In this document: positions 1 through 19,608 of the stretch, piece by piece
Layout of the letters: each line of letters begins with the position of its first letter
Numbering within the stretch: position 1 is the first letter of the stretch
Assembly (NCBI GenBank): GCA_903910705.1
Contig: CAIWAN010000052.1
Coordinates: 5,844-69,843, forward strand
Length of the DNA: 64,000 nt
Direction: 5' to 3'
From: an uncultured Candidatus Marinamargulisbacteria bacterium
Lineage (GTDB): Bacteria > Margulisbacteria > Riflemargulisbacteria > GWF2-35-9
The notes under the pieces: model-generated
The model's input: the letters and a program-made list of their open reading frames with translations, nothing else
What the model was told of the DNA's origin: nothing
The model's database searches: none
Made by a program: the position numbers and the translations under genes

Positions 1-1026
1 CGAGATCTTATGCATTTCCTCGGTTCGGATCTGAACCTCGACGGGCTTTCCGCTCGGGCCAATAACCACCGTATGAATAGACTGATACATATTCTGTTTG
101 GGCATCGCGATATAATCCTTGAATCGACCCGGAATAGGCTTGCATTGCGTATGAATGATACCCAGAACGGCGTAACACTCTTTGACCTCTTTCACGATAA
201 TTCGAATGGCATAAAGGTCATAGAGGTTCTTAATAGTGGTACGTTGCTTGATCATTTTATTGTAAATCGACCAGAAATGTTTGGGCCGCCCTGTTACAAC
301 CGCAGGGATATCCTCGAGCGCGAGTAAGGTCTGAACGAGTTTAACAAAATCCTGAATGTAGAGTTCCCGACCCTCTCGCTTTTCGGCGATCTCACCTTTC
401 AATTTTTGGTAATCTTCTTCATACAGGTGGCGGAAACAAAGATCCTCTAGCTCCCATTTTATTTGACTCATCCCCAATCGATGGGAAAGGGGCGCATAAA
501 TATCAAGGGTCTCACGAGCGATCCGTCGCCGCTTATCCTCATCAAGGAACTTCAAGGTTCGCATATTGTGAAGGCGATCGGCTAACTTAATGATGACGAT
601 GCGAATATCCTTGGCCATGGCCAAAAACATCCGACGAAAATTCTCGATCTTCGCCTCTTCCGCACTCGAGAAATTCAATCGGCCGAGCTTCGTAACCCCC
701 TCGACGATCTCCGCCACATTTTCACCAAACAACCGAACGATCTCTTCATGGGACACATCGGTATCCTCGACCACATCATGCAGCATAGCCGCAATGAGTG
801 TCGTCTCGTCGGCCTCATATTCGGCTAGGATCTCAACCACATGAACGGGATGCCAAATATAAGACTCCCCTGACCGCCGTTTCTGGCCATCATGGGCTTT
901 CATCGAGAACTCAAAGGCCTCAATAAATTTCTCAAGATTGAAATGTTTGTTGTAGATTTTTATCGACTTGGCTAAACGGCGAATGGTATAACGCAGCTCT
1001 TGTTCCATAACGGTTAATCGTAACAT
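1..1026 (-). CDS. relA: (p)ppGpp synthetase/hydrolase RelA/SpoT family, N-terminal HD and synthetase region; the gene runs off the window edge
   Basis: Manual minus-strand translation from the ATG at 1026 gives MLRLTVMEQELRYTIRRLAK..HDGQKRRSGESYIWHPVHVVEILAEY..TLIAAMLHDVVEDTDV..RIVIIKLADRLHNMRTL. This carries the HD motif and RelA/SpoT hallmark blocks. It is not in the ORF track because it is partial. Confidence 0.85.
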   Translation of the reverse strand, partial: MLRLTVMEQELRYTIRRLAKSIKIYNKHFNLEKFIEAFEFSMKAHDGQKRRSGESYIWHPVHVVEILAEYEADETTLIAAMLHDVVEDTDVSHEEIVRLFGENVAEIVEGVTKLGRLNFSSAEEAKIENFRRMFLAMAKDIRIVIIKLADRLHNMRTLKFLDEDKRRRIARETLDIYAPLSHRLGMSQIKWELEDLCFRHLYEEDYQKLKGEIAEKREGRELYIQDFVKLVQTLLALEDIPAVVTGRPKHFWSIYNKMIKQRTTIKNLYDLYAIRIIVKEVKECYAVLGIIHTQCKPIPGRFKDYIAMPKQNMYQSIHTVVIGPSGKPVEVQIRTEEMHKIS

Positions 1027-1052
1027 GTTTTTTAGGTTTAATAACCCCTATT

Positions 1053-1535
1053 TTGGGGCACACTCTGAATATGGAACAAGAAGAACAACCCGAGACCTTC
1101 CGAGATATTGCGCGTGTTTGCGTTAAAAAGAACAATAAAGGGCCCTTTGATGAGCTCATTACCACCCTTTTCCGTATCAAACAGTTGACCGAATTTATTC
1201 CCCATATCGATTCAAAATGGGACAAGAAAACGGTTTTAATGAAATGTATCAGTCAAGGTCTCAAATACTCAAACTTCAAAAGCTTTAAAGACGAGGTCAC
1301 GGCCTATCCCAGCTTTAGCGATCTGGAAAATTGCAGCTCAATAAAAGAGTTCTATGCCTTATTGACCGAAGAAGAAAATCAAGAACCGATACACAAAAAG
1401 CTATTACAGCGTTTTCAAGGCATCCTTCATGAGCATGAATTCTCGCTTTCATTTTTGAAGAATTGGATCGCAAAAGATATCGAAGAACTCGAGCAGCAAG
1501 CCGAATACATCAAAATCACTCAACCAAACGGATAG
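1053..1535 (+). CDS. hypothetical protein (160 aa; the real start may be the ATG at 1071)
   Basis: Intact ORF with no recognisable motifs. Its stop lies 5 bp before the left 34-bp direct repeat. Confidence 0.4.
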   Translation: MGHTLNMEQEEQPETFRDIARVCVKKNNKGPFDELITTLFRIKQLTEFIPHIDSKWDKKTVLMKCISQGLKYSNFKSFKDEVTAYPSFSDLENCSSIKEFYALLTEEENQEPIHKKLLQRFQGILHEHEFSLSFLKNWIAKDIEELEQQAEYIKITQPNG

Positions 1536-1540
1536 CCCTC

Positions 1541-1574
1541 ACTCCTCCCGCATTAACTTCAAGAACATCGCAGC
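1541..1574. repeat. Left copy of a perfect 34-bp direct repeat ACTCCTCCCGCATTAACTTCAAGAACATCGCAGC. It is an orphan duplicate of the 3-prime end of gene 2495-3814.
   Basis: 34/34 identity with 2497-2530. Its reverse complement encodes AAMFLKLMREE plus a stop. Confidence 0.9.
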
Positions 1575-1577
1575 CTA

Positions 1578-1606
1578 TTGATTTATACCTCAATAATAGG
1601 TAATAT
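1578..1606 (+). promoter_or_regulatory. sigma70-like promoter TTGATT-N17-TAATAT driving the cassette genes
   Basis: -35 at 1578-1583, a 17-nt spacer, and -10 at 1601-1606. It is followed by a GGAGG RBS at 1616-1620 and the ATG at 1630. Confidence 0.5.
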
Positions 1607-1629
1607 AACCTTCATTGGAGGTATGATTT

Positions 1630-1965
1630 ATGTTAGATTACTTGTTTGGAAATAAAAATATTGAAAAAATACTGCAATATTTATCAAAGAACAAAACGGG
1701 GTATGCTTACGAACTCTCGCGACAATTTGGATGCTCTCTTGCACCGATCCAAAAAACCCTCAATAAACTTGAGCGGGGCGGACTCCTAGTTAGTCTAAAC
1801 ATAGGAAAAACACGACAATTTCAATTTAATCCAAAGTATCCCTTTCTAAATGAGATTGAGGCACTCGTCAAAGCAGCTTATCGTTTTCTACCCGAGGATC
1901 AGAAATTAACGTATCAACGCCTTACCAGAAAGCGTCCAAGACGAGCGAACAAGCCATTGCTGTGA
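1630..1965 (+). CDS. winged-helix DNA-binding protein, putative antitoxin/regulator (AbiEi- or MarR/PadR-like)
   Basis: 111 aa with a wHTH-like segment GYAYELSRQFGCSLAPIQKTLNKLERGGLLVS and a basic tail. A GGAGG RBS sits 9 nt upstream. Its stop overlaps the next start (GTGA). Confidence 0.55.
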   Translation: MLDYLFGNKNIEKILQYLSKNKTGYAYELSRQFGCSLAPIQKTLNKLERGGLLVSLNIGKTRQFQFNPKYPFLNEIEALVKAAYRFLPEDQKLTYQRLTRKRPRRANKPLL

Positions 1966-2492
1966 CAATTCCTATTGTTAAAGATCTGTCCATCTCTGAC
2001 CTAGCAGCCTTTATTGGTGGATATTTAGAACAACAGGGTGTGGATGTCGTTTTGGTCGGTGGAGCATGTGTATCCATTTATTCAAAACATGCTTACATCT
2101 CAGGTGATTTAGATTTAATTACTTATCACGAAGGCAAAAAGATCAAAGAAGCGCTGTCTCGCATCGGGTTCAGGTTTACAAAGAATAACTATTTTGTTCA
2201 TTCAGAGAGCAACTTTATTCTAGAGTTCGTGAACCCGCCTGCAGCAATAGGCCGAGACGCCATTACAGAGTTTGCGCAATATAAAACAAATCTTGGTTCA
2301 ATAAAGCTCCTAACGCCTACAGACTGCGTAAAAGATAGGCTTACAGCCTACTTCTATTGGAACGATGAACAGTCCCTTGAACAAGCTTTACTTGTTGCAA
2401 GAGAACAAACAATAAACCTTTCTTTGTTGGAAATTTGGGCAAAAAGAGAAAAACAATTGGGCAAGTTTTCCACGTTTATTTCTCTCATTTAA
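1962..2492 (+). CDS. minimal nucleotidyltransferase-fold protein (AbiEii/MNT-like), putative toxin
   Basis: GTG start overlaps the upstream stop. The sequence VVLVGGACVSIYSKHAYISGDLDLITYHE matches the pol-beta NTase signature (hGG-x12-S-x-D-h-D). Confidence 0.5.
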   Translation: MTIPIVKDLSISDLAAFIGGYLEQQGVDVVLVGGACVSIYSKHAYISGDLDLITYHEGKKIKEALSRIGFRFTKNNYFVHSESNFILEFVNPPAAIGRDAITEFAQYKTNLGSIKLLTPTDCVKDRLTAYFYWNDEQSLEQALLVAREQTINLSLLEIWAKREKQLGKFSTFISLI

Positions 2493-2494
2493 CG

Positions 2495-3814
2495 CTACTC
2501 CTCCCGCATTAACTTCAAGAACATCGCAGCGTCATTGGTCTGCATCGTCGAGAGCAGTTTTGCCTTCTTTTTGACCGACATTTTATCAAGGATCTTTTTG
2601 CATTCTGGGGGCGACAAATGCTTCCAAATAACCAAGACGTCATCGGGGGGCACCTTTTCCCAGACCCGAATGAACTGTTGAAAGTTTTTTGAGGGTTCCT
2701 CTGTCAACGTCCCTCGCGTCATTTCTTTGTAATACGTCGCAACTTTTTCAGATGGCAGGGCAACAAATAACTTGGTAACGGTTCTGTCCGACAGAGCCAA
2801 TAAAATATCTTCGACGGCTTTGTTATTCATTCGCGTAAATATCGGCGGCAAGGCATTGATGTCCATCTTTTCGTAAACAGCCGCTAGTTGTCGACGTTTC
2901 TTTTTGGCCTCTTCGACAACATTCACCGTTGGCTGAACCGCCACCCCATTTGTCTCGGTCGGGGCTATTGACGCAGACGGCATTTGGGGGATCGCAGGCA
3001 GCAAAAAGGACGCGGCCGGAACATCTTGACCATCGGGCGGAGGCGGCTCATCGATACCAACAACCCCCATTGCAACGCGGGTACTATTTATCCATTGGTA
3101 CAACAAATGGCGGGGGGGCACATTGAGACCGATCGCATCCTCACGACTCACTTGAAACATCTCTTGCTTTCCGAGCATCGCACAGTAACTTCCCGAACTA
3201 ATAAGAGGGACTAATTCATTGAAATCAGCATGGAGATTTACCGCATCATACAGGCGTTGCGCGACTTGTTTGGTTCGAATATACGGTGTTTTGCTGCCCT
3301 GTCCGACGAGGATCTTCATGATCTGAACATTATCGACCCAGAGTTCTGAAAATTCTTTATTTTTTACAATATTTCGGATGACCCGAAATCGATACAAAAA
3401 AGGAGGCGTCTGTTCCGAACTCTCAATATCGGCGACCTCTCTGATATCGAGATTAAACTCGCCAATTCGCTTGATTTGATTTTGAGCCGAAATACGTTCC
3501 TTGGCCCACGCAACACGTTGTTCTTGAGCAGCAATTTTCTGAACGGTACTCGCTATAAAAGGCAACCGATAGGCCACTCTCTTTGGCAAATATCCCATAA
3601 AGGCCAAGTTGGCGATGACTAAATACAAAAGAAAGATCAACAAAAAGAGACTCAATGCGATGAGAATACCTGACACAACGGAACGTCTAACCCGTTGAGG
3701 GTCTAGTTTCTTTTTCGGGTGTTTTAGGCGGCGCTTATGGGTTTTGACCTTTTTTGCTGCTTCCGCTCTGCCTTGTTCTTCATCCATGATCGTTATCATA
3801 TCAAAGATTCGCAC
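2495..3814 (-). CDS. membrane-anchored protein with a C-terminal helical MgtE_N/FliG-like domain; possibly a flagellar accessory protein of the YlxF/MotE type
   Basis: 439 aa with an N-terminal basic region and one TM helix (ILIALSLFLLIFLLYLVIANLAF). It is divergent from fliK. The functional assignment is weak. Confidence 0.4.
   Translation of the reverse strand: MRIFDMITIMDEEQGRAEAAKKVKTHKRRLKHPKKKLDPQRVRRSVVSGILIALSLFLLIFLLYLVIANLAFMGYLPKRVAYRLPFIASTVQKIAAQEQRVAWAKERISAQNQIKRIGEFNLDIREVADIESSEQTPPFLYRFRVIRNIVKNKEFSELWVDNVQIMKILVGQGSKTPYIRTKQVAQRLYDAVNLHADFNELVPLISSGSYCAMLGKQEMFQVSREDAIGLNVPPRHLLYQWINSTRVAMGVVGIDEPPPPDGQDVPAASFLLPAIPQMPSASIAPTETNGVAVQPTVNVVEEAKKKRRQLAAVYEKMDINALPPIFTRMNNKAVEDILLALSDRTVTKLFVALPSEKVATYYKEMTRGTLTEEPSKNFQQFIRVWEKVPPDDVLVIWKHLSPPECKKILDKMSVKKKAKLLSTMQTNDAAMFLKLMREE
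2497..2530. repeat. Right copy of the 34-bp direct repeat. It forms the actual 3-prime end of gene 2495-3814.
   Basis: Identical to 1541-1574. Confidence 0.9.
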
Positions 3815-3959
3815 TCTTTTGACCCTTTACAAGCAAAAAAAAATAGGTACTATGTTAAGTGTTACAGGGAATTGTACGGGGGTTTTTCACGGAAGATCAT
3901 TATTAGCACTGGCTGCCAGGAACGCTTGTCGTATGGCCAAAGCCAAGAAAGGGAGACCT

Positions 3960-5573
3960 ATGCAAGCGGTCACACAAGTATCCTCGTTAGGGGATCAAAC
4001 GCTATTCTTCTCGTCATCGTCAAAAAACACGGATTCTTCTTTTGCAGATATTTTTGCCAAAGAGAGTCAATCCCCTCCTGCTGAATCGAAAGCGGAGACG
4101 CCGACTAAGCCATCCACCGTTTCGGCCGAAGCCAATAAACCCGCCGAGAACAAATCAAGTCCCTCAACGGAAGCCAGTGAAACGACAAAAGCTGAGGCCA
4201 CCAACAAAGAAACCAAAGAGGCTCAAGCCAAACTCGAGGAAGAAGCCCTTAAAGAAAAGGTCAACACGCTCGTTTCAACAACGCCCACGTCCATCGCCTT
4301 TTTGCCAACACTCACGTCAAAAGAAACACTGGCCAAGCCAAACCATGCCACAAAGTGGACAGAGATCCCTCCGGTCACCCTTCGACTAAGCGGGAAATCG
4401 ATTACGTCTTCAGACCTCAATACAACGAATAATACAGACCTTGCGACCTTAGCCAAAAACATCAAAGAATTAGCCCCCCTTCTGGCCAAGCTGAAAGATA
4501 AGGTGGACATGTCCGCAGAGGAACGAACGAATTTGATGGCCCTCATTTCAAAAATATCGCAAAGCCTTTCAACCCTTCAGACACAATCCGCATCGCTTTC
4601 TATCGATCAAAAGAATATCCTTGCGTCCTTAAACACCCTTAAAGACTCCTTAACAACATCGCTACAAGTATCGAACGCCTCGTCACAAGCATTACCCCTT
4701 CAACGTTCAACGGATCAATCGGCTTCGTCCATCGCAACACTTCTCCAAGACCTACAAGGTTATGTTGAAGAGGTTAAAAAAACTCAAACCTTTAAGACAG
4801 AACTTATTAAGGGGATTGATCTTAGCCAAAAGAACGCGACGATCCAACCGGTTGCAACAAACCTGCAAACCCCTGAAGCGATCGCTGCAGCATCCGTTGT
4901 CGAATCCACGCCAGAAGTTGTTGATGCATTAAGTCAGGACATCGCCCCACCAGAAAAAACCAAATCACAAACCAGCAAGCAGCTTACCGATATGATAAAG
5001 CCTCTTTTTAGCGACAATCTCAATGTTGTCAACCTAAACACCGACACCAAGGCGGCCCCCCAAGCTCAACCATCTGTTGCGGCCACAGCACCACTTGCAG
5101 GGGCACCCCAAACCGCTAACATCGAAAAACAAACCGCCATTCTGTCGCAATTTACAACCTTTATGGCCGTCACCAAGCTTCGCTCAGAAACCGAAGTAAC
5201 GCTTCGTCTACATCCTCGCGAATTAGGGGACATTAAGATTCAGATCACTCGCACAGAGAACCAAGCCCTTCACGAGCCAGCGACTATTTCCGCTAAGTTC
5301 CAAGTCAACAGCGAGATGGTCAAATCCGTCCTTGAAAGCAATTTCAATTTACTCAAAGATAGCCTTCAACAGCAAGGCAACTTTAATATGGCGCAAATGA
5401 GTGTTGATGTCCAAACCAATGGATCTCAGAACCAGGGTTTTCAAGACAATCAGGAAAGCGCATCCAATCAGGGTTTTTACTCGAATCCTTTAGTCAATGA
5501 GGATCATTTTGTTGCAAACTCGTCCCCTTCCTTAGCTATCGCACATAGCGGGGATTTGGACAGAGTGGCCTAA
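3960..5573 (+). CDS. fliK: flagellar hook-length control protein FliK
   Basis: S/T/A/K-rich low-complexity N-terminal region and a C-terminal Flg_hook-type block LRLHPRELGDIKIQITRTENQALHEPATISAKFQVNSEMVKSVLESNF. The start is placed at the ATG at 3960, which has a GGGAG RBS. The ORF is open from 3744, with alternative in-frame ATGs at 3850 and 3933. Confidence 0.65.
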   Translation: MQAVTQVSSLGDQTLFFSSSSKNTDSSFADIFAKESQSPPAESKAETPTKPSTVSAEANKPAENKSSPSTEASETTKAEATNKETKEAQAKLEEEALKEKVNTLVSTTPTSIAFLPTLTSKETLAKPNHATKWTEIPPVTLRLSGKSITSSDLNTTNNTDLATLAKNIKELAPLLAKLKDKVDMSAEERTNLMALISKISQSLSTLQTQSASLSIDQKNILASLNTLKDSLTTSLQVSNASSQALPLQRSTDQSASSIATLLQDLQGYVEEVKKTQTFKTELIKGIDLSQKNATIQPVATNLQTPEAIAAASVVESTPEVVDALSQDIAPPEKTKSQTSKQLTDMIKPLFSDNLNVVNLNTDTKAAPQAQPSVAATAPLAGAPQTANIEKQTAILSQFTTFMAVTKLRSETEVTLRLHPRELGDIKIQITRTENQALHEPATISAKFQVNSEMVKSVLESNFNLLKDSLQQQGNFNMAQMSVDVQTNGSQNQGFQDNQESASNQGFYSNPLVNEDHFVANSSPSLAIAHSGDLDRVA

Positions 5574-5586
5574 AGGAGGCTCGATC

Positions 5587-6207
5587 ATGGCCAGTACAAC
5601 GCCGACTATTCAAACCAATGCGTTTAACTCCATTAATCGAAATATCACCTCGAGCAATCAGTTGGGAAAAGACCAGTTTCTTAAAATGCTCGTCACCCAA
5701 CTTCAATACCAAGACCCGATGAGTCCTCAAAGCAATGAAAGCTTTATCGCTCAGTTGGCTCAATTTAGTGCCCTTGAATCCCAGCAAAACCAGCAAAAAA
5801 CTCTTGAAGGGGCGCAAGCATTTTCCCTCATCGGAAAAACCGTCGAGAAAGTCGACGTTCTGACTCAAGCGGTTACTCAAGGCGTTGTAGGCGGGGTCAA
5901 GGTCGTTAGTGGCAAATATACGCTCCTGCTTGACCAAGCGGATACAAGCACTGTACTTAAAACCGATGTTGTCTCCGCCTTTAATGCAGCCGGAAAGAGT
6001 TATGAGCAATATAAGAACACCCTATTTACCGCGACCAGTCTCAGTGCAGACAAGCTCGTCTGGCGTTCAAACATCACCTCAGAAGCCGATTTTGCAACAA
6101 CTTTAGGCTATGCGGATGCGACCAAACTACCAACAGCGCTTCGAGGATTATATGGAAAAGCCTATCCGACCGAAGTGGCCATCGGAGACGTCAGCTATGT
6201 TTATTGA
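5587..6207 (+). CDS. flgD: flagellar hook capping/assembly protein FlgD
   Basis: Motif LGKDQFLKMLVTQLQYQDPMSPQSNESFIAQLAQFSALE, and an AGGAGG RBS. Confidence 0.85.
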   Translation: MASTTPTIQTNAFNSINRNITSSNQLGKDQFLKMLVTQLQYQDPMSPQSNESFIAQLAQFSALESQQNQQKTLEGAQAFSLIGKTVEKVDVLTQAVTQGVVGGVKVVSGKYTLLLDQADTSTVLKTDVVSAFNAAGKSYEQYKNTLFTATSLSADKLVWRSNITSEADFATTLGYADATKLPTALRGLYGKAYPTEVAIGDVSYVY

Positions 6208-6240
6208 TCCATCTATTTTGAAGGGAGGCGAACGAAACAC

Positions 6241-6648
6241 ATGGTAGATATGAGCCGATTTTCACAAGATATTGCACGGATACAAGCCGACCAGATCGGT
6301 CTAAACATTGCCCCCACACCCAGTCAACGAAAACTTGAACAAAGTCAATTCGCGCAAGAATTTAAAGCAAAGTTGGGGATCAGTGACGATCAAGATATTG
6401 TCCAATTTTCGAATCATGCTATTGCTCGACTTCAGAAAAGAAATATCGACATTACGCCGACAGACCTTTCCCGCATCACCAGTGCGATCGATAAGGCTGC
6501 AGCAAAAGGATCTCGCGACTCGCTCGTCATGATCGATGATCTGGCGCTTGTTGTAAGTATAAAGAATCGAACGGTCATAACGGCCATGGACCAACAATCC
6601 ATGAAAGATCAGGTGATTACGAATATTGATAGTGCGGTTATCGGTTAG
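6241..6648 (+). CDS. flagellar operon protein (TIGR02530-like small protein typically found between flgD and flgE)
   Basis: 135 aa, sitting between flgD and flgE. Motifs FSNHAIARLQKRNI and NRTVITAMD fit that family as I recall it. Confidence 0.45.
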   Translation: MVDMSRFSQDIARIQADQIGLNIAPTPSQRKLEQSQFAQEFKAKLGISDDQDIVQFSNHAIARLQKRNIDITPTDLSRITSAIDKAAAKGSRDSLVMIDDLALVVSIKNRTVITAMDQQSMKDQVITNIDSAVIG

Positions 6649-6712
6649 TTATTGAATCCATAGCGGGTTGGACCTCCTGAGGAAACCTGCTAAATAAAAA
6701 GGGGGGGGTATT

Positions 6713-8959
6713 ATGTTACGTTCTATGTTCGCAGGCCTTTCTGGCCTTCGGAACCACCAAACAGCGCTTGACGTTATCGGTAACAATATATCGAATGTCA
6801 ACACCGTGGGGTATAAAGGTTCCCGTATTCAGTTCGCAGAACTTCTGAGTCAAACCATTCGAGGCGCAGGATCTCCTTCAGCCGAAGGAACGGGGGGTAC
6901 AAACGCCATTCAAGTCGGCCTTGGTATCGCAACGGCATCCATCGACGTCAGCCATCAACAAGGCAATCTTCAATCTACGGGAAACATGAGTGATCTTGCC
7001 CTTCAAGGCAATGGTTTTTTTATCCTTAGTGATGGTCAAAAACAAGCCTACTCGAGAGCGGGCGAATTCTCCTTTGACGCGAACGGAACAATGGTTGCCT
7101 CAAACGGAATGAATGTGATGGGCTGGATGGCCGATTCAGCGGGAACCGTTGATCTTAACACCAATATTCAAGGGCTGCTTATCCCTGTCGGAAAAACGAT
7201 CGACGCCCGCGCCACAACAAAAGTAGACTATGCCCATAATCTCAGCTCTAAATCAGATATGCTTGGTACCCCGCACATCGCGTCAGGGAATTCTGCCAAT
7301 GTAGAGCTGATCACCGGCACCTATACCGGCAACGCCACCGCGATTGATAACCTTGGCGCCTCATTCCCTATTGTTGACGTCGTAGGCAGTCATTATCTGA
7401 CGGTCAATGCTGAAACACATACCGGCACAAGAACAGACTTGAACGGAACCGAATCTTTAACAGCGCTTGGAGCCACCAATGTAAGTACGTTTCGGGTCGC
7501 CGTCGACGGGGTTTCAAACATTGTAACCCTTGCGAATGGCAATATCAGCACAGTCAATGAGTTAATATCTGCGATCAACTCTCAGATCAATGGGGTTACC
7601 GCTGAACTATCAGGAAATGCCGTCAAAATAACCCGAAATATTGCTGGCTCTGATGCAACCATTTCTGTTGAAGATATCGGGTTTGCAACCAATGGAATCG
7701 CTGCCAATGTTTTTGGAACGGGAAATGCTGTTTGGACCGCAGGCACCCACAACAAAGGAACAACCATTCTGGGGGGGTCACCCTCTATTGCGGGAGCACT
7801 CCCCTTAACAACCTGGCCAGCCCTCAGCCTTGCCCAGACACTCAATGTCACGGTCAATGAAGCCGGCGGAGCAAAAACTATTGCATTTACCCCAACCGGA
7901 ACAGAAACCACACTCAATGATCTGATCACCAGTTTCAATACATGGGGCGCCTCTGCGGGGTTTGATAAAGCCGTTAAGATGTCGGTCAATAATGCAGGTA
8001 ATCTCATTATTGAAACAAAAGACCCATCAGTTGCGACCACAGGGCTTAGCGTAGCCGATGGGGGTGCAGGGGGCATCAAATCAACACTGATGGGCGTTAC
8101 AACCCAAATAGGACGAACGTCAGTCGCCGCAAATGTTACCCACGAATTCATTGAAGCTGACGGAGGGGGCGCACACTACACTCAACTCGATTTCAGTAAT
8201 GGGGATGCCCAGATCACAGGACTTACAGGGGTCTCTATCACAGCGAATACAACAGGGTTTAAAGCCGGTACGGTCGTCTTACAAACGGTAGCAGCAGCAG
8301 AACACATCGCAACGACACAAGTATATGACTCTCTCGGACTTGCCCATACCATTAACGTAACCCTAAAGCGACTATCCGATAACACGTGGAAATGGGACGC
8401 TGGGGGTATCGATGTTGTGGGTTCGGGCACCTTAACCTTTGATGCGAACGGCGTCATACAATCCGGTTCGGTAAATGGGAATATAACGGTAGGCGCATCG
8501 GGCGGAGCGAACTCGATCTCCATTGTTCCTGATTTCAGCAGCGTGACCCAATACGCCTCTTCAAGCACCATGTTACACGTCAACCAAGATGGGTATACCG
8601 ATGGCTCCCTATCAACGTATTCCATTGATTCGAACGGAGAGATTTTGGGTATCTATACCAATGGACTCAACCAAACCATTGGGCAAATAGCGGTAGCCGC
8701 CTTTAACAATCCGGCAGGTTTAATGAAAACAGGGGATAGCATGTTTATTGCCTCGAATAACTCGGGGACAGCCCAAATTGGTGCGGCGAACACCGGCGGT
8801 AGAGGAACGTTCTCTGCTGGTACTTTAGAAATGTCTAACGTCGATATCGCTCAAGAATTTGCGAATATGATCATTTATGAGAGAGGCTTTCAGGCCAACT
8901 CAAAAGTCATCACAACGGGTGATGACATGCTACAAACACTGGTTAGCATGAAACGATAA
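6713..8959 (+). CDS. flgE: flagellar hook protein FlgE, a large form carrying a central insertion
   Basis: N-terminus MLRSMFAGLSGLRNHQTALDVIGNNISNVNTVGYK and C-terminus MSNVDIAQEFANMIIYERGFQANSKVITTGDDMLQTLVSMK are canonical rod/hook termini. 748 aa. Confidence 0.85.
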   Translation: MLRSMFAGLSGLRNHQTALDVIGNNISNVNTVGYKGSRIQFAELLSQTIRGAGSPSAEGTGGTNAIQVGLGIATASIDVSHQQGNLQSTGNMSDLALQGNGFFILSDGQKQAYSRAGEFSFDANGTMVASNGMNVMGWMADSAGTVDLNTNIQGLLIPVGKTIDARATTKVDYAHNLSSKSDMLGTPHIASGNSANVELITGTYTGNATAIDNLGASFPIVDVVGSHYLTVNAETHTGTRTDLNGTESLTALGATNVSTFRVAVDGVSNIVTLANGNISTVNELISAINSQINGVTAELSGNAVKITRNIAGSDATISVEDIGFATNGIAANVFGTGNAVWTAGTHNKGTTILGGSPSIAGALPLTTWPALSLAQTLNVTVNEAGGAKTIAFTPTGTETTLNDLITSFNTWGASAGFDKAVKMSVNNAGNLIIETKDPSVATTGLSVADGGAGGIKSTLMGVTTQIGRTSVAANVTHEFIEADGGGAHYTQLDFSNGDAQITGLTGVSITANTTGFKAGTVVLQTVAAAEHIATTQVYDSLGLAHTINVTLKRLSDNTWKWDAGGIDVVGSGTLTFDANGVIQSGSVNGNITVGASGGANSISIVPDFSSVTQYASSSTMLHVNQDGYTDGSLSTYSIDSNGEILGIYTNGLNQTIGQIAVAAFNNPAGLMKTGDSMFIASNNSGTAQIGAANTGGRGTFSAGTLEMSNVDIAQEFANMIIYERGFQANSKVITTGDDMLQTLVSMKR

Positions 8960-8967
8960 CTATTTTA

Positions 8968-8997
8968 GCCGAGGCACAAAAAAAACTGTGCCTCGGC
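8968..8997 (+). terminator. stem-loop (11-bp stem GCCGAGGCACA/TGTGCCTCGGC with an A-rich loop) between flgE and fliL; a possible attenuator or RNA-processing site
   Basis: Perfect inverted repeat 8968-8978 / 8987-8997. There is no U-tract after it. Confidence 0.4.
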
Positions 8998-9034
8998 ATT
9001 CCAAGTCTTTCGTATCTGCGGTATAGTAAAGCAC

Positions 9035-9526
9035 ATGGAACAGGCCATCCCTAACAAAAAAAATAAATCCTTGTACGTTACCATTGGTCTGGCTGCAGGC
9101 GTTACCATGGCGTTCATTATTACTGCGATCATTGCTTTTATGCTCATCAATAAGCCCATTCCCAGTATCAATGCCGCAGAGGAACCCTTTACGCAAATGG
9201 TTCCCATGCGCGAATTTGTCGTCAATTTACTGGATATGGGGGGGCGTCGATATTTAAAAATTCAAATCGACTACGAAATTGAGCTGACAAAAAAACCTAA
9301 AGGAGGCGGCGAGGGTAAGGGGCCCGAGATCCCACCCGAGATCAAAGAAAAAGAATCCATATTACGGAACTATATTATCAATATCCTGTCCAATAATTCT
9401 GCAGCGGATATTCGATCCATCGAAGGTAAAAATGAGCTTAGAAAAGCGATTTTAGTCAAAAGCAACTTCATCCTTAAAAAGACAAAAGTATTGAACGTGT
9501 ATTTCAACGACTTTATAATACAGTAA
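9035..9526 (+). CDS. fliL: flagellar basal-body-associated protein FliL
   Basis: Single N-terminal TM helix, matching size, and position in the cluster. Confidence 0.55.
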   Translation: MEQAIPNKKNKSLYVTIGLAAGVTMAFIITAIIAFMLINKPIPSINAAEEPFTQMVPMREFVVNLLDMGGRRYLKIQIDYEIELTKKPKGGGEGKGPEIPPEIKEKESILRNYIINILSNNSAADIRSIEGKNELRKAILVKSNFILKKTKVLNVYFNDFIIQ

Positions 9527-9546
9527 CATAATCAAAGGATGTCAAA

Positions 9547-9969
9547 ATGAGCGGAGATATCAGTATAGACCAAAATGAAATTGACTCCTTGCTCGGATTT
9601 GAGGCTTCACCCCCACGGTCTAAACCACCTCCCCCTCCTGAAAAAAAGAGTCCCACCCTACACGCAGAAAATATCAGTTACCAAACACTCATCAATGACA
9701 AGCCCTCTGGATCTTCCAGCGAGATCGATCTGGTCGGCGATATCCCTCTCGAACTTTCTGTCGAGCTCGGTCGGACAAAACGATCGATTGCCGACATCCT
9801 TGATTTTGGTATCGGTACCGTCGTCGAACTGACACGATTAGCCGGCGAACCCGTCGATCTGATGGCCAATGGCAAGCTCATTGCCAAGGGCGAAGTTGTG
9901 GTCATTGATGAGAACTTTGCCCTCCGCATCACGGACATCATCAGCCAAAAATCCAAAAAAGAGTCCTAG
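9547..9969 (+). CDS. fliN: flagellar motor switch protein FliN (SpoA domain)
   Basis: C-terminal block DIPLELSVELGRTKRSIADILDFGIGTVVELTRLAGEPVDLMANGKLIAKGEVVVIDENFALRITDI. Confidence 0.8.
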   Translation: MSGDISIDQNEIDSLLGFEASPPRSKPPPPPEKKSPTLHAENISYQTLINDKPSGSSSEIDLVGDIPLELSVELGRTKRSIADILDFGIGTVVELTRLAGEPVDLMANGKLIAKGEVVVIDENFALRITDIISQKSKKES

Positions 9970-9974
9970 GTCAA

Positions 9975-10475
9975 ATGGCCACGCCGGATCCTCTCTTCTT
10001 CATAACCGAACATTCAGTCAGCAATAATACCGCAGGAAACACGACTTCAACGATGACCATAAGCCCGGTTCACTTCATTTTAAATGTTATTTTTGTCCTC
10101 GTTCTTTTGTACCTTACGCTGCTTGTTATTCGACTTATCTACCGAAAAACAGGCCTCGCCCATTCTCACGTTCTCAAAGAGATCCCGTTGGGGCCTACAA
10201 GTAAACTTCAATACATCAACGTCGGAGACAAACTTTACCTATTGGCTCAAAACGGGACGCAAATGGTTCATCTTGATACCCTTAGTGACCCTAGCCTTAT
10301 CCTCAGATTACTTGACGAGGCCACCCCCCTGAAACAACCCTCCTTTGCATGGGGAACACTGTTGAACTTTTTTAAACGAAACCGATCGATCGACCTTGAA
10401 CCCGAACAGTTTGACACGACCCTTAAGAAAATCCTTCAAAACTCGAACAAACTTGAGGACATGAATAACCGATGA
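9975..10475 (+). CDS. fliO: flagellar biosynthesis protein FliO/FliZ
   Basis: Single TM helix, located immediately upstream of fliP and overlapping it. Confidence 0.5.
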   Translation: MATPDPLFFITEHSVSNNTAGNTTSTMTISPVHFILNVIFVLVLLYLTLLVIRLIYRKTGLAHSHVLKEIPLGPTSKLQYINVGDKLYLLAQNGTQMVHLDTLSDPSLILRLLDEATPLKQPSFAWGTLLNFFKRNRSIDLEPEQFDTTLKKILQNSNKLEDMNNR

Positions 10476-12211: not shown

Positions 12212-13279
12212 ATGGCCGATCCCTCTCGTTCGGAAAAAGCGACCACTCGGCGACGACAAGACTATCGCAAAAAGGGCAGTGTCGCAAAAAGTGTCGAGAT
12301 CAATACGGCCGCGATCCTCTTGGCTGCCTTCATATATTTAAAGTTTGCTGGTGGGTTCATTTATGGACATTTACTTCAAATATTCCGATTCTATTTCGAA
12401 AATTTGAACACCATCGATGTCCAACAAGAGAGCCTACTAAATGTTGCCTTTAATGCTACCTTCCATATTGTCATTCTGACAGTGCCCTTTCTGCTATTTA
12501 TGATGCTGGTCGTCATGGTGGCCTCTTGGCTTCAAATAGGATTTATGTTTACCCTTGAGCCCATAAAACCCAGTTTCAGCAAGATCAACATTCTCAAAGG
12601 ATTTCAGAATTTATTCAGTAAACGCTCCCTCGAAACCCTCATCAAATCCTTGGCTAAGGTCATCATTATCGGCTATATCGTCTACTCGACCATTCGAAAA
12701 GACATTCCGATCATGCTCGACTTTTTCAATATCCCCATTGAAAATGCTTTTCTCATTCTTTGTAAACTCGCCATGGACGTTTTGTTAAAGATCATCCTTG
12801 CGTTTGTTGTTCTGGCAGGGATCGACTATCTCTTTCAACGATGGCAACTTGAGGAACAAATGAAAATGACAAAACAAGAGATCAAAGAAGAATATAAACG
12901 GACCGAAGGTGATCCGACGATCAAAGCCGAGATCCGCCGTCGTCAACACGAAATGGCTCGTCATCGCATGATGCAAGACGTTCCCAAAGCCGACGTGGTC
13001 GTTACGAATCCCATTCATGTAGCTGTTGCGATCAAATACAATGCTGCCGAGATGCGGGCTCCTATCGTTGTCGCCAAAGGCATGAATCTCGTTGCCGAGA
13101 AGATCAAGCAACTCGCTTCTGAGAACGACATTCCGATGGTAGAAAATCCACCCTTGGCGAGAGCCCTTTATAAATCCGCAAAGGTTGGCAAAGAGATCCC
13201 CGCCGATATGTACTCGGTTGTAGCCGAGGTATTGACCTATTTATATCGACTTAAGGGGAAAACGTTTGGGGTTATTTAA
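12212..13279 (+). CDS. flhB: flagellar export switch protein FlhB
   Basis: FlhB architecture, with a conserved C-terminal cytoplasmic domain (TNPIHVAVAIKYN...). Confidence 0.9.
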   Translation: MADPSRSEKATTRRRQDYRKKGSVAKSVEINTAAILLAAFIYLKFAGGFIYGHLLQIFRFYFENLNTIDVQQESLLNVAFNATFHIVILTVPFLLFMMLVVMVASWLQIGFMFTLEPIKPSFSKINILKGFQNLFSKRSLETLIKSLAKVIIIGYIVYSTIRKDIPIMLDFFNIPIENAFLILCKLAMDVLLKIILAFVVLAGIDYLFQRWQLEEQMKMTKQEIKEEYKRTEGDPTIKAEIRRRQHEMARHRMMQDVPKADVVVTNPIHVAVAIKYNAAEMRAPIVVAKGMNLVAEKIKQLASENDIPMVENPPLARALYKSAKVGKEIPADMYSVVAEVLTYLYRLKGKTFGVI

Positions 13280-15110
13280 GGTTCGACAGATGGACTTGAT
13301 TTCCTTTGATTCGAGCAAGCATGACGTCGACACCCCCAACCGATAATGCTTCTGTCATTTCAAGGGGACTCGGCATCGGGATCGACTGGTTCCCAATTTG
13401 CAGCTGTGTTCCCGATAACGACGAAGATAGCATCATCAGCGCGGTTGAATCAATCTTCCCCATACCTGACAGAAGATCTTTGATTCGTTCAAGCAAGGCA
13501 GCATCGGGCGCAACACCCGCCTGCTGAAGGAGTTGCAACATTTCCTCCGGATCCGTCATTGACATCAACTGCTCAATTAACGCTTCTGGCGAGATTTTTT
13601 CGCCCGTATCATCCAATAGCGCTTGCAACCCATTGTCTGACATCATTTTCTTGAAAAGTTCCATGAAATTTTGAGGCTGGGAGGGGGCACTTACGATCAC
13701 GACCGTTCCGATCATCTCAACCACGGCCCCTTTAGCCTTGCTCATATCGAATTTCACTCCATCGATATCCAGCACCATAAAATTCGTGTCCATGATCGCC
13801 AGATTGCCTCGATAATCAAAGGCCAGATTACCATTTTGATCAACAGCGATCCCCACCGTCACGGTCAAAACGATGAGTTTTCCGCCCACCCGAATGAAGA
13901 TCTGCTTATTGTACGGTCGCATGGTGATTTCTTTTTTCTTTACGGTAAGTTTAAGGTGATCGCCCTCCATCGTGATATTGGCTTTTTTAGGAAGCGACAC
14001 CCGACTCTCACCATAACGAAGCAGACGTTTACGGCCATTGAGGGACAGTCCTTCGCCAAATTTTAGCGATCCTCGAACAACCTCAACCGTAGCGCCCTTT
14101 TCAAACTGGACACCGATCCCATCAGACTGAACATGGGCCTGAGCCAATTGAACCCTAACCAGCTGATGATCAAGTTCAAAGGCAACATGTCCCTGATTAT
14201 CGACCACCGCATTCGTTCGAGGGGACATCAGCAGATGGCTCCCTCCCAAGGAAAGTTGCACTTTATCTGCAATAGTCATAAATTGAAGTCGTTGCGTTGC
14301 CTTCTGCTCATTAACCAGAACCTCGACGCTATCCTCCATGATGATCAGACGAGATTGCCAAGGCACTTTGATGGCATTCTTTCCCAGCTTCATCACGCCT
14401 CGTTGGAAATCAAAACTCATGATGTCACCGAATTGAAGGCCTTTTCCTGCCATCAACACAGGAAGATCGATCGGGTTATACGAAACACGATAGGGCCCAC
14501 ACTTAACCGAGCGATCGCGAAGATTCATCACCGCGACATCACCCGCTAGATCAAAAGCTAGGATCGCATGTTCATCAAGGTATCCATTGGTTGCGTCCAT
14601 CCATTGGATCGTTGTCGGCCCCAGTTTGATCTGTGCTGCCCCCGAAGCGAATGAGACAATAACCGGTTCATCGCACCCATCAAGAACGATCCCCACTTCA
14701 GAATCGCTCATCCCCAGTTCACAGTTTGAGGGAATTTGAAGTTGATTCTGTAGGATCGATAAAATACGTAGGGTTGAGTCGTATCGGACACCGTTAGGAA
14801 ACAACAACCCTTCATCGTCTTGAACGACCGCCCCGCCCATCATGAGATGGGCCACGATATTCTTATCTTTAAATATTAAATTGTCTTGCTCTTGTCGTAG
14901 GTGATGTCGCGACACGACATACGTACTAACGGTCACGTCGCTTTCATCCGTTTCTTCGCTCACAACAAGGTCTTCCTTGTCCACCGCTTCAAAGAGAGTT
15001 GACATGGTCACGAGGTTTTCTAACGACTCAAAAAGACCGACCTCGTCAATCGTATCAACAACGATCGACTGCGTAGACGGAGCGACAAGTGTTTGTTGTT
15101 GATCTTGCAT
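13272..15110 (-). CDS. hypothetical beta-rich repeat protein (612 aa) with a helical C-terminal tail
   Basis: Internal units of about 35-60 aa, for example GIVLDGCDEPVIVSF, HAILAFDLAGDVAVMNL, NGNLAFDYRGNLAIMD. There is no Walker A motif, so it is not FlhA or FlhF. A GGAGA RBS precedes the start. Its stop overlaps the flhB stop by 8 bp. Confidence 0.5.
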   Translation of the reverse strand: MQDQQQTLVAPSTQSIVVDTIDEVGLFESLENLVTMSTLFEAVDKEDLVVSEETDESDVTVSTYVVSRHHLRQEQDNLIFKDKNIVAHLMMGGAVVQDDEGLLFPNGVRYDSTLRILSILQNQLQIPSNCELGMSDSEVGIVLDGCDEPVIVSFASGAAQIKLGPTTIQWMDATNGYLDEHAILAFDLAGDVAVMNLRDRSVKCGPYRVSYNPIDLPVLMAGKGLQFGDIMSFDFQRGVMKLGKNAIKVPWQSRLIIMEDSVEVLVNEQKATQRLQFMTIADKVQLSLGGSHLLMSPRTNAVVDNQGHVAFELDHQLVRVQLAQAHVQSDGIGVQFEKGATVEVVRGSLKFGEGLSLNGRKRLLRYGESRVSLPKKANITMEGDHLKLTVKKKEITMRPYNKQIFIRVGGKLIVLTVTVGIAVDQNGNLAFDYRGNLAIMDTNFMVLDIDGVKFDMSKAKGAVVEMIGTVVIVSAPSQPQNFMELFKKMMSDNGLQALLDDTGEKISPEALIEQLMSMTDPEEMLQLLQQAGVAPDAALLERIKDLLSGMGKIDSTALMMLSSSLSGTQLQIGNQSIPMPSPLEMTEALSVGGVDVMLARIKGNQVHLSNLK

Positions 15111-18294: not shown

Positions 18295-19608
18295 ATGAAA
18301 CGTCAAATCGAATCAAAACTGCAAAGATGGAAAGAAACTGACGCTCGAAAACCCTTGATTCTGAATGGGGCAAGGCAGATTGGAAAAACATACAGCCTCA
18401 TTGAGATTGGTAAAACAAATTTTCGCAACCTCATCTACATAAACTTTGAAGCACAGCCCGATTATAAAAGGATCTTTGATCGCGACGTAGAACCTTTACG
18501 AATACTTCAAGAGATCAATATGCTTTTGGGCACCTCGATAAAGGCAGGGCAGGATCTCCTTTTCTTTGACGAGATACAAGAGTGCCCTCGCGCGCTCACG
18601 AGCTTGAAATACTTCTGCGAAACCCTACCGGACCTTCATGTTTGTGCCGCGGGATCTCTTCTTGGACTTGAACTCAACGAAGCTGCCTTTCCGGTCGGGA
18701 AAGTCGAGATGCTCGACATGCATCCCCTCTCGTTTCATGAATTTTTATTAGCGGCGGATGATAAGCTTGCGGCCTTAACAGAGCAATCAGCTGTCGTTCC
18801 CGAGGCCATCCATAAGCGGCTCTGGGATTACTTAAAAAAATACTTTATCCTCGGAGGTCTTCCTGAGGTCATTGCTAGCTACATTCAACATGCAGGCGAT
18901 GAAGCCACTGCGTTTGAAAACGCACGCCAAGTTCAACTTCAACTCATACAGGGCTATATTGCAGATATGGCCAAACATTCCGGCAAACAAAATGCGATGC
19001 ACCTTGAACGAATTTGGAAAAACATCCCCGTTCAGCTCGCTCGAAAAGTTGATCTAACCACGTCGAAATACTCGTTCAAGGGGGTAATACCCAAAATCGA
19101 TCGATATTCGCGTCTTGTTGGAAGTCTCGACTGGCTAGAAAAGGCCGGACTGGTGATTCGTGTACCCATTTTAGACCACATTGACCTGCCATTATCGGCT
19201 CAAGTTCAAGAAAACACCTTTAAACTATATATTTTTGACGTAGGGCTCTTGGGAGCTCTTTCCGGACTATCTCCCCAGACCCTCTGGGCCCAAGATTATG
19301 GCTCATATAAAGGCTATTTTGCCGAGAACTTCGTCGCACAAGAACTCATAGCACACGGCAGAAGGCCCTTGTTTGGATGGGAAGGCCGTACGTCCGAAGT
19401 TGAATTCGTCCTCGATATTGCGGGAAAGATTATCCCTGTCGAGGTAAAGGCTGGCCATATCACTCGTTCACAAAGCATGAACGTTTATCAATCAAAATTT
19501 GCCCCACAAAAAGGATTTCTGCTGAGCGCCAGAAACGCGCCCCTCATCGAATCCACATGGATCACTCATCTTCCGCTTTATCAAGCGAGTAAGATTGGCC
19601 TGTCTTAG
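18295..19608 (+). CDS. AAA+ ATPase of the AAA_14/DUF4143 family
   Basis: Walker A GARQIGKT. The length and C-terminal region are typical of DUF4143 ATPases. Confidence 0.75.
   Translation: MKRQIESKLQRWKETDARKPLILNGARQIGKTYSLIEIGKTNFRNLIYINFEAQPDYKRIFDRDVEPLRILQEINMLLGTSIKAGQDLLFFDEIQECPRALTSLKYFCETLPDLHVCAAGSLLGLELNEAAFPVGKVEMLDMHPLSFHEFLLAADDKLAALTEQSAVVPEAIHKRLWDYLKKYFILGGLPEVIASYIQHAGDEATAFENARQVQLQLIQGYIADMAKHSGKQNAMHLERIWKNIPVQLARKVDLTTSKYSFKGVIPKIDRYSRLVGSLDWLEKAGLVIRVPILDHIDLPLSAQVQENTFKLYIFDVGLLGALSGLSPQTLWAQDYGSYKGYFAENFVAQELIAHGRRPLFGWEGRTSEVEFVLDIAGKIIPVEVKAGHITRSQSMNVYQSKFAPQKGFLLSARNAPLIESTWITHLPLYQASKIGLS

Follow-up and report, generated by a model that had tools for sequence, protein, structure and literature searches.

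A putative addiction-type cassette, inserted long ago and bounded by duplicated gene ends, between two convergent genes of a Candidatus Marinamargulisbacteria genome

How did a two-gene cassette that encodes no recombinase come to lie in the 3-nt gap that separated two convergent genes without harming either of them, and why has it persisted for so long despite flanking repeats that should promote its loss? The locus that raises these questions belongs to a 64,000-nt stretch of DNA (the window) from an uncultured Candidatus Marinamargulisbacteria bacterium. The cassette, of ~915 nt, is bounded by two identical copies of a 34-bp direct repeat and consists of a promoter, a gene for a 111-aa winged helix-turn-helix (wHTH) protein, and an overlapping gene for a 176-aa nucleotidyltransferase (NTase). 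On balance, we favor the view that it is a horizontally acquired, addiction-type module that entered by an ancient duplicative insertion and that the repeat is the scar of that event; nothing indicates present-day movement. A tiny module of this type could thus enter even so tight a junction by duplicating the gene ends. The features of the locus are as follows (coordinates are those of the window).

1071..1535, plus strand: conserved 154-aa host gene that converges on the MgtE_N gene; 3 nt separate its TAG stop (1533-1535) from the stop of the orphan gene end
1533..1574, no strand assigned: left copy of the duplication, at least 42 nt, with the exact 34-mer at 1541-1574; orphan of 11 codons plus TGA stop on the minus strand
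1575..1629, plus strand: control region of the cassette, with -35 box TTGATT (1578-1583), 17-nt spacer, -10 box TAATAT (1601-1606), and GGAGG ribosome-binding site before the ATG
1630..1965, plus strand: wHTH DNA-binding protein, 111 aa, putative antitoxin and autorepressor, with weak matches to HTH_20, HTH_11, and GntR
1962..2492, plus strand: minimal NTase of the DNA polymerase beta (Pol-beta) fold, 176 aa, putative toxin, translationally coupled via a GTGA overlap
2489..2530, no strand assigned: right copy of the duplication, with the exact 34-mer at 2497-2530; functional 3' end of the MgtE_N gene
2495..3814, minus strand: MgtE_N-domain membrane protein, 434/439 aa, the target gene (Pfam MgtE_N, 1.3e-11)

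The initial annotation had described the repeat as perfect, and the two copies of the 34-mer ACTCCTCCCGCATTAACTTCAAGAACATCGCAGC do match at 34 of 34 positions. Apart from the internal repeats of a giant open reading frame (ORF) described at the end, this is the sole long perfect direct repeat of the window; no third copy occurs there within 3 mismatches, and a chance repeat was rejected on the basis of 0 matches in 100 shuffled sequences. Translated from the minus strand, the left copy gives Q*AAMFLKLMREE* (asterisks denote stops), an orphaned duplicate of the final 11 MgtE_N codons with its TGA and a preceding in-frame stop, just as had been reported. The right copy encodes AAMFLKLMREE, the C terminus of the 439/434-aa MgtE_N ORF, and the proposal that the repeat regenerates the end of its target gene also holds, since this copy is the functional 3' end. 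Collapse of a repeat during assembly had been named as something that could undo these observations. This was rejected on three grounds: contigs from ENA, NCBI, and Logan, covering several samples, are 100% identical to the window; a Logan k=31 unitig ends exactly 30 nt inside each 34-mer copy; and a sister lineage (L093), whose two copies differ from each other at 3 sites, assembles straight through the repeats.

The sister lineage also showed that 34 bp describes the exact copies in the window and understates the original event. When window positions 1533-1574 were compared with the right copy and flank of L093, 42 nt matched with 2 mismatches. The right copy of L093 is preceded by TAACCCTC, which matches TAGCCCTC ahead of the left copy in the window; therefore, the original duplication was at least 42 nt long. 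The ancestral duplicated unit, TA[G/A]CCCTC plus the 34-mer, comprises the 11 MgtE_N codons, the TGA stop, GGG, and the complement of the stop codon of the neighboring gene, and the stop codon of the NTase gene occupies the position that the neighbor's stop occupies in the other copy. In the window, the right copy has degenerated in its distal 8 nt (TAACGCT, versus TAACCCTC in L093), and for this reason the MgtE_N gene now ends in TAG instead of TGA. By parsimony, all three repeat changes fall on the L093 branch, where 3 of 34 positions differ between the copies, and both copies of the common ancestor would have been the 34-mer of the window. Because the insertion duplicated the gene ends, both host ORFs are intact; with the genes 3 nt apart, only an end-duplicating insertion could survive. 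The 34-mer alone has no dyad symmetry, no inverted repeat was found at the 34-mer or the cassette ends, fold z-scores at the 34-mer ranged from -1.5 to +0.9 with none significant, and no Rfam family matched window positions 1 to 6000.

The space between the repeats is filled by a single, tightly packed transcription unit. The left repeat is 3 nt from the -35 box, the NTase stop is 0 to 4 nt from the right repeat, and there is no pseudogene debris. The own promoter, GGAGG site, and two coupled ORFs first reported for the cassette are all present, the ORFs (1630-1965 and 1962-2492) overlapping by 4 nt (GTGA). The promoter agrees with the consensus at 8 of 12 positions, which is below the threshold of a promoter scan, and hence the scan did not list it; both of its hexamers are invariant among three diverged lineages (the window, L093, and a further relative, L090). 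From the cassette boundary to GGAGG, only 1 or 2 positions differ in L093 and L090, despite the L090 coding sequence being only ~80% identical. A palindrome, TATTGA-N8-TCAATA, overlaps the -35 box as a putative operator, and relatives have different palindromes at the analogous place. The interior is unusual in composition: its GC content of 38.5% falls at the 1.7th percentile among windows of 922 nt, and its tetranucleotide distance reaches the 99.4th. It had been described as more AT-rich than both flanks. The AT richness stands, but the left flank is likewise AT-rich (40% GC), and the 154-aa ORF located there is a conserved host gene, so that composition marks the cassette as atypical without giving it a sharp left boundary.

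That the cassette is an inserted accessory segment, as had been proposed, follows from the state of the same slot in relatives. The MgtE_N gene, which is divergent from a fliK-flgD-flgE flagellar operon, has orthologs of 76% and 61% identity, and its homologs on record form three clusters only, a thin sampling. The nearest named genome is a Candidatus Marinamargulisbacteria metagenome-assembled genome (MAG), L007 (76% aa identity in MgtE_N). The 154-aa protein, for which no Pfam or NCBIfam family was found, has orthologs in the same position in L007 (81% aa identity) and L009 (62%; 157 aa). The initial annotation suggested looking for an empty site, and an empty slot is seen in L009, the 61%-identical lineage, in which the two orthologs are directly convergent, 162 bp apart, and without the cassette. 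In L007 and L008 (76%), the slot is filled by an unrelated 225/250-aa ORF of no Pfam family. The slot is therefore variable among relatives. With the slot empty in one relative and otherwise filled in others, with the cassette itself atypical in composition, and with its gene pair present in many phyla, the cassette is a foreign insertion. The empty slot of L009 (9405-9566) contains a long hairpin, ggccaagttgcaaccggaa...ttccggttgccgtcttggc, between the convergent genes. The L007 slot with the 250-aa ORF (9309-10436) is bracketed by GGGGGGCTA and GGGGAGGCTA and has a 16-nt inverted repeat at 10291-10306 and 10398-10413; a 9-nt G-rich match (GGGGxGGCTA) beside the 154-aa gene of L007 was too weak to be accepted as a remnant of an MgtE_N end.

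Within the source population, no allele with an empty site was found; all contigs that encode the identical MgtE_N or 154-aa protein carry the cassette and are 100% identical. No circular form of the cassette was seen among these contigs either. The junction of a circle would read CTCATTTAACGCT + 34-mer + CTATTGATTT (also given as CTCTCATTTAACGCT + 34-mer + CTATTGATTTATACC), and that of an empty site would read GGATAGCCCTC + 34-mer + GTCATTGG (also given as CAAACGGATAGCCCTC + 34-mer + GTCATTGGTCTGC).

The age of the insertion was judged from L093 and L094 of the sister lineage (Logan SRR26280454/55), to which a protein search led by finding a wHTH variant with one residue changed. Over 10 kb, gene order in L093 follows that of the window (88.6% nucleotide identity), and the same cassette is present with the same junctions. 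Nonsynonymous (dN) and synonymous (dS) divergences between the window and L093 are as follows.

wHTH: dN 0.004, dS 0.098, dN/dS 0.04
NTase: dN 0.043, dS 0.33, dN/dS 0.13
relA (partial): dN 0.001, dS 0.24
154-aa gene: dN 0.016, dS 0.50, dN/dS 0.03
MgtE_N: dN 0.035, dS 0.53
flgD: dN 0.031, dS 0.70
flgE: dN 0.026, dS 0.78

Neither cassette ORF contains a stop in the window or in L093; both genes are intact and under purifying selection. Over window positions 1 to 10000, the divergence from L093 is a mosaic, with relA and the relA/154-aa intergenic region 95 to 100% identical and the flagellar genes 83 to 89% identical. For the block made up of orphan, promoter, and wHTH gene, the identity is 96.7% (3.3% diverged, versus 8 to 17% in its neighbors). 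This pattern suggests recombination between the window and L093 lineages.

A more distant contig, L090, came from a different sample (3x coverage, with an adapter at one end). It contains the same cassette lineage (NTase, 89% aa identity) at a cassette dS of 0.7 to 1.8, comparable to the host dS of ~1.2 between the window and L007. Its cassette boundary is identical to that of the window (...CAGC followed by CTATTGATTT). An orphan 3' end resembling that of MgtE_N abuts this boundary from outside; it measures at least 57 nt (LKMKPTDAALYLKLMKKEW) and, compared with the orphan in the window, extends 22 nt further on the cassette side. Beyond the orphan are sequence like the L007 intergenic region and then a different neighbor, which by eye is a DUF4143-type ATPase gene. 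The simplest reading is that the window and L090 descend from one ancient insertion, followed by an indel in nonfunctional DNA; L090 might instead be an independent insertion that used the same cassette end. Because L093 has the same junctions at a flank dS of 0.5 to 0.8, and L090 is separated by a cassette dS of 0.7 to 1.8, the insertion is old and fixed, and the cassette is vertically inherited and not demonstrably mobile. The idea of a recently or actively mobile element is not supported by these comparisons, given the shared junctions and the dN/dS values of 0.04 to 0.13. The perfect identity of flanking repeats, in other words, does not date an insertion as recent.

The two cassette genes encode an uncharacterized and very common pairing. 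Homologs of the NTase number >1100 at E below 1e-3, with hosts including Margulisiibacteriota, Chlamydiae, Verrucomicrobia, Elusimicrobiota, and Thermodesulfovibrionia, and a wHTH gene is located upstream of the NTase gene in every one of ~75 fetched loci. Among 48 homologs, NTase residues G33, G34, D49, and D121 show no variation and D51 shows almost none, and the motifs GG...D.D and TPTDxxKD are invariant. An AlphaFold (AF2) model of the NTase has a predicted local distance difference test (pLDDT) score of 93, and Foldseek comparison of this model with solved structures returned the fungal NTase-like 5uvd, ANT(2'')-Ia, MenT1, MenT3, LnuA, and TM1012 at a template modeling (TM) score of ~0.5. 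Sequence profiles were less informative: the Pfam scan gave a subthreshold DUF2204 match alone, with no match to the DUF1814/AbiEii family, the NCBIfam search of the NTase returned nothing, and known defense and toxin-antitoxin profiles gave weak or partial matches only. The wHTH protein matched the N-terminal part of PDC-M05A of PADLOC (1.6e-8). Throughout the family, as at window positions 1930-1965, wHTH proteins have a conserved basic tail, R-K/R-R-P-R-R-A-N/G-K-P-L, right before the overlapping NTase start, which is a candidate neutralizing or substrate-mimicking segment. Based on the gene order, the 4-nt overlap, the palindrome at the -35 box, and the patchy distribution, we infer that the pair is a toxin-antitoxin or abortive-infection-type module resembling AbiE or MenAT, and the predicted fold links it to the tRNA-modifying toxins MenT and AbiEii. 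In one relative (L092, 119-2902), a 61%-identical cassette is located in a small toxin-antitoxin island beside an MNT-HEPN pair and an Unstab_antitox gene.

The arrangement in the window is not unique within this family. For each cassette, the 400 nt upstream and the 400 nt downstream were compared for significant same-strand repeats, with cassette-sized positions in the same loci as controls (n = 244). Flanking repeats were found in 13 of 53 metagenomic loci but in only 4 of the 244 controls (Fisher p = 7e-8). In 12 loci, the repeats hug the cassette, giving repeat-bounded units of 914 to 1140 nt (versus ~860 nt for both ORFs), and no terminal motif common to these 12 units was seen. The repeats are local sequences of 19 to 180 nt and 80 to 96% identity. 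That in L060 comprises the final 17 codons and the terminator hairpin of a Peptidase_M3 (pepF-like) gene, with the topology seen in the window; that in L027 consists of the last 43 codons of a 73-aa ORF; that in L062 covers a small gene's promoter and 5' coding region; and the remaining ones are intergenic or REP-like multicopy sequences. Recurrence next to duplicated ends of other genes, which the initial annotation asked about, is thus seen in at least two loci (L060 and L027).

Closely related cassettes in unrelated contexts delimit the unit further. The spans that they share, given relative to the wHTH ATG and the NTase stop, are as follows.

L028 and L037: 96% nucleotide identity, -163 to +145
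L054 and L056: 93% nucleotide identity, -156 to +28
L023 and L049: 90% nucleotide identity, -84 to +30
L041 and L053: 87% nucleotide identity, -55 to +6

As judged from these alignments, the cassette unit extends from just 5' of the -35 box to just 3' of the NTase stop, and the boundary in the window (-55) fits. In L028 (5529-5581 and 6623-6675) and L037, a repeat of ~53 nt on both sides of the cassette is common to both contexts, and the homology of L031 to these two begins and ends in the middle of that repeat, at ATGAT[A/C]AA. One further locus, L038 (2027-5510), is an array of small toxin-antitoxin cassettes, namely, the wHTH-NTase pair, ParE/Phd, and a DUF5615 PIN-like gene. Its spacer repeats of ~100 to 270 nt each contain a tRNA 3'-half-like fragment (...GGCGTCCCCAAGAGGATTTGAACCCCTGTTACCGG...), whereas the 8.6-kb locus contains no intact tRNA; among the family loci, such repeats were seen in this one only.

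Machinery that could have moved the cassette was sought at three scales. As first reported, the cassette itself has no recombinase gene, since it contains the wHTH and NTase genes only. None was recognized in the 64-kb window, where ten unnamed ORFs were searched against Pfam and the others were judged by eye from their translations. Near the family loci, there was none among the families matched by at least two of 139 integrase-sized neighboring proteins; the recurrent ones were housekeeping families. Several known classes were rejected. An integron gene cassette is excluded by the lack of an attC-type box pair (RYYYAAC...GTTRRRY) 3' of the NTase gene in all 70 family loci (0/70, versus 5/1101 control windows) and of an inverted repeat or significant fold at the repeat. 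A transposon, insertion sequence, or miniature inverted-repeat transposable element does not fit, because there are no terminal inverted repeats and no transposase, and the duplication is 42 nt here and 19 to 180 nt in relatives. A pdif/Xer module does not fit either, as the 34-mer lacks arm symmetry by inspection, with no phylum-specific dif consensus compared. A tRNA- or tmRNA-targeting island is likewise discounted, as the target is protein coding and has no Rfam match; no tRNA gene was found in 13 repeat-flanked related loci that were scanned.

For the remaining classes, the correspondence is partial. The direct repeats restore the 3' end of the target (34/34, and at least 42 nt ancestrally) as in integrative islands, and no tyrosine or serine recombinase is located inside the element; the empty slot was seen solely in the 61%-identical L009, the closer cassette-slot lineage L093 being filled and the source population clonal. 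Like cis-mobilizable elements (CIMEs) and other integrase-less remnants (e.g., at the fda 3' end in Streptococcus thermophilus), the cassette has attachment site (att)-like direct repeats that duplicate the 3' end of a protein-coding gene and restore the ORF, and it lacks recombination, transfer, or conjugation genes. CIMEs differ in being several kilobases long, in being defined by mobilization in cis, and in being tied to the integrase of an integrative and conjugative (ICE) or integrative and mobilizable (IME) element using the same att site. The cassette, in contrast, is ~0.9 kb long and exactly one transcription unit; no cognate integrase-bearing element was seen, the 225/250-aa ORF of L007 and L008 being the only other insert here among the three MgtE_N clusters on record; and the family repeats are unrelated local sequences.

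Among NTase systems, AbiE (AbiEi/AbiEii) and MenA/MenT share with the cassette an upstream wHTH partner, coupled genes, a promoter palindrome, and, as predicted for the NTase from its model, a Pol-beta fold with catalytic aspartates (GS/GG...D.D...D). They differ in that AbiEii and MenT3 have ~290 aa versus 176 aa and in that the wHTH partner, at 111 aa, is without the C-terminal domain of AbiEi. At the level of sequence families (DUF1814/AbiEii COG2253 and AbiEi COG5340), the cassette does not belong to this group, as the profile matches are insignificant (AbiEii E = 0.034, DUF2204 below the cutoff). HEPN-MNT systems and the PADLOC candidate PDC-M05 are similar in being two-gene modules of the defense island type with a minimal NTase, and the N-terminal PDC-M05A match of the wHTH protein belongs here. 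They are unlike the cassette in having a HEPN partner, no HEPN gene being present in the cassette, and the NTase itself has no M05A match; the published architecture of PDC-M05 is an NTase plus a HEPN protein (PMC12988326). Toxin-antitoxin cassettes of chromosomal integrons are, like members of this family, small, discrete, promoter-bearing units that have no recombinase of their own and stabilize their surroundings, but they have attC sites, an integron integrase, and an array, and their insertion makes no target duplication of 30 to 180 nt; the repeat here has no hairpin. The Xer-dependent pdif modules of Acinetobacter plasmids are, like the cassette, ~1 kb or more, often carry toxin-antitoxin genes, and are bounded by short sites, and they are moved by host recombinases. 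Those sites are inverted 28-bp XerC/XerD sites with dyad symmetry, whereas the cassette repeats are direct, asymmetric, and composed of the coding sequence of a neighboring gene. The cassette thus combines two known kinds of entities, integrase-less repeat-bounded elements and NTase toxin-antitoxin modules.

How, then, might it have entered, and why would it stay? The comparisons show a single old insertion at the 3-nt junction of the convergent MgtE_N and 154-aa genes in a Marinamargulisbacteria ancestor, with duplication of at least 42 nt of the target. Since then, the cassette has passed down with the chromosome and stayed functional. The sigma70-type promoter with its overlapping palindrome would drive expression of the wHTH protein, which, by analogy with AbiE and MenAT, may both repress its own synthesis and neutralize the coupled NTase, a MenT/AbiEii-like toxin that would nucleotidylate some target in the cell, for example, tRNA 3' ends. 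If the module were lost, the toxin would be set free, and such addiction would account for the persistence of an insert that is flanked by repeats and hence deletable: inserts flanked by repeats would normally be lost by recombination between the repeats, and those carrying toxin-antitoxin genes would not. Retention by addiction would also explain the enrichment of repeats around this cassette family. The entry route is the weakest step. In this step, local target DNA would have been copied, rather than an att copy borne by the element. Target copying is favored because the family repeats are local, are arbitrary in length, and derive from 3' ends, from one 5' end, and from intergenic DNA. Candidate routes are microhomology-primed insertion or insertion at a staggered break during replication or repair; the two junctions share TA and possibly GCTG.

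A number of points weigh against this explanation. We know of no bacterial mechanism documented to give 40- to 180-nt target duplications around kilobase-sized inserts, and integrase-borne islands give exactly this kind of duplication, one that begins within a gene and continues through the stop codon. In L028, L037, and L031, the repeats travel with the cassette, and the ends of L031 look like a single repeat unit split at ATGAT[A/C]AA, the signature of site-specific recombination of a circle, as though a circle with one repeat unit had been opened at a recombination core. The toxin-antitoxin function is putative, and the matches to the AbiE hidden Markov models, AbiEii included, are insignificant. 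In addition, the orphan differs from that of L093 at 2 of 34 sites, when ~12 differences would be expected from the neighboring dS of 0.5. Neutral decay of a scar, taken alone, accounts neither for this conservation nor for the 100% identity of the copies; the cause may be gene conversion by the coding copy, a regulatory function of the sequence just upstream of the -35 box, or a younger recombinant block. A precedent for microhomology-primed entry, SPDIR, in which ectopic single strands are integrated at replication forks, is described for short patches only (bioRxiv 10.1101/2023.11.22.568220).

The main rival is site-specific recombination in trans, which we regard as unlikely. The cassette would then resemble a CIME or a satellite: a circle carrying the MgtE_N 3' end as attP would have been integrated by a recombinase encoded elsewhere, and the repeats would be attL and attR, perhaps still excisable. 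A repeat that starts in the target gene, passes its stop, and restores the ORF is the classic attL/attR footprint, and the cassette exactly fills the space between the repeats. Cassettes related at 90 to 96% of nucleotides occur as discrete units of 0.97 to 1.16 kb in unrelated contexts, the same slot took a different cargo in L007 and L008, and L028, L037, and L031 share both repeat copies, with the ends of L031 corresponding to two halves split at a common core. On the other hand, no recombinase was recognized in the cassette or the window or was recurrent near ~60 family loci, and the 34-mer lacks dyad symmetry and predicted structure. The flanking repeats differ wholly in sequence and length (19 to 180 nt) by lineage and include a gene 5' region and intergenic DNA, and neither an empty site nor a circular form accompanies an insertion that is common to lineages with a flank dS of 0.5 to 0.8. 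A fixed crossover point also predicts something other than what is seen in L090, where the orphan starts 22 nt further into the gene at the same boundary. The classic site-specific integration invoked in the initial annotation therefore remains only in part: the footprint fits, but site-specific integration is one of several mechanisms that do, and the variable-length local repeats without a shared terminal motif speak against it.

A broader, equally unlikely alternative is that the wHTH-NTase pair represents a widespread class of ~1-kb mobile cassettes, of which the window contains an old, fixed example. These cassettes would have no recombinase of their own and would insert among housekeeping genes, often at gene ends, by a duplicative mechanism, not described so far, that copies 30 to 180 nt of local target and is either driven in trans by an unrecognized function of the host or of another element or promoted by their own wHTH and NTase proteins. 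The pattern that points this way is one of 0.9- to 1.15-kb units with local repeats in about a quarter of the loci and no recombinase nearby. If it does reflect a mobility mechanism, toxin-antitoxin and defense genes would have a new route of spread, independent of integrons, transposons, and integrases. It is this pattern, seen across the family, of cassettes that lack a recombinase and are tightly bounded by repeats that merits further work.

Decay of an integrative island is less likely than site-specific recombination in trans, and we consider it distinctly improbable. An integrase-bearing element at the MgtE_N 3' end would have lost everything but its toxin-antitoxin module, with attL and attR on either side. 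Such decay would suit the resistance of toxin-antitoxin modules to deletion, the documented existence of att-flanked remnants that lack an integrase (CIMEs), the variability of the slot in relatives, and the orphan in the window, which seems trimmed on the cassette-proximal side relative to that of L090. The spacing of 3 nt and 0 to 4 nt to the repeats, with no pseudogene debris, does not suit it, and the same tightness in about a dozen loci (914 to 1140 nt) would require two near-perfect deletions in each; further, the junctions are identical across three diverged lineages.

We give still less credence to RecA-mediated Campbell integration, likewise less likely than recombination in trans, by which a small nonreplicating circle containing the cassette and gene-end homology (e.g., excised in a related cell and taken up) would have entered by a single crossover. 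Such a crossover duplicates exactly the homologous stretch, repeats of 34 to 180 nt equal or exceed the shortest length that RecA can use, and the mosaic divergence (3.3% in the block versus 8 to 17% in its neighbors) suggests exchange between lineages; but the efficiency at 34 to 42 nt would be very low, how the first circle gained the target end is left unexplained, and the unrelated targets of other family members would each need a prior association. The reading that nothing was inserted, and that the repeat is a chance match, an assembly artifact, or a conserved structural or regulatory element resembling a gene end, could appeal to the orphan being conserved beyond neutral expectation and sitting just upstream of the -35 box but is effectively refuted by the lack of chance matches, the agreement of independent assemblies and of a sister lineage with an imperfect repeat, the lack of an Rfam match or significant fold, and the empty or otherwise filled slot in relatives.

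Some other features of the window are of note. Two AAA_14 plus DUF4143 ATPase genes (18295-19608, plus strand, and 20184-21335, minus strand) lie on either side of an ORF (19616-20158) that by eye resembles a dTDP-4-dehydrorhamnose epimerase gene; the same ATPase type occurs beside the L090 orphan (by eye) and near the L028 cassette. Two adjacent minus-strand ORFs of 612 and 780 aa (13272-15110 and 15110-17452) have no Pfam match, and the 780-aa product is very rich in acidic and serine low-complexity sequence. Finally, a giant minus-strand ORF of >5208 aa (48374-64000) runs off the end of the window and contains diverged internal repeats ~340 to 730 nt apart.

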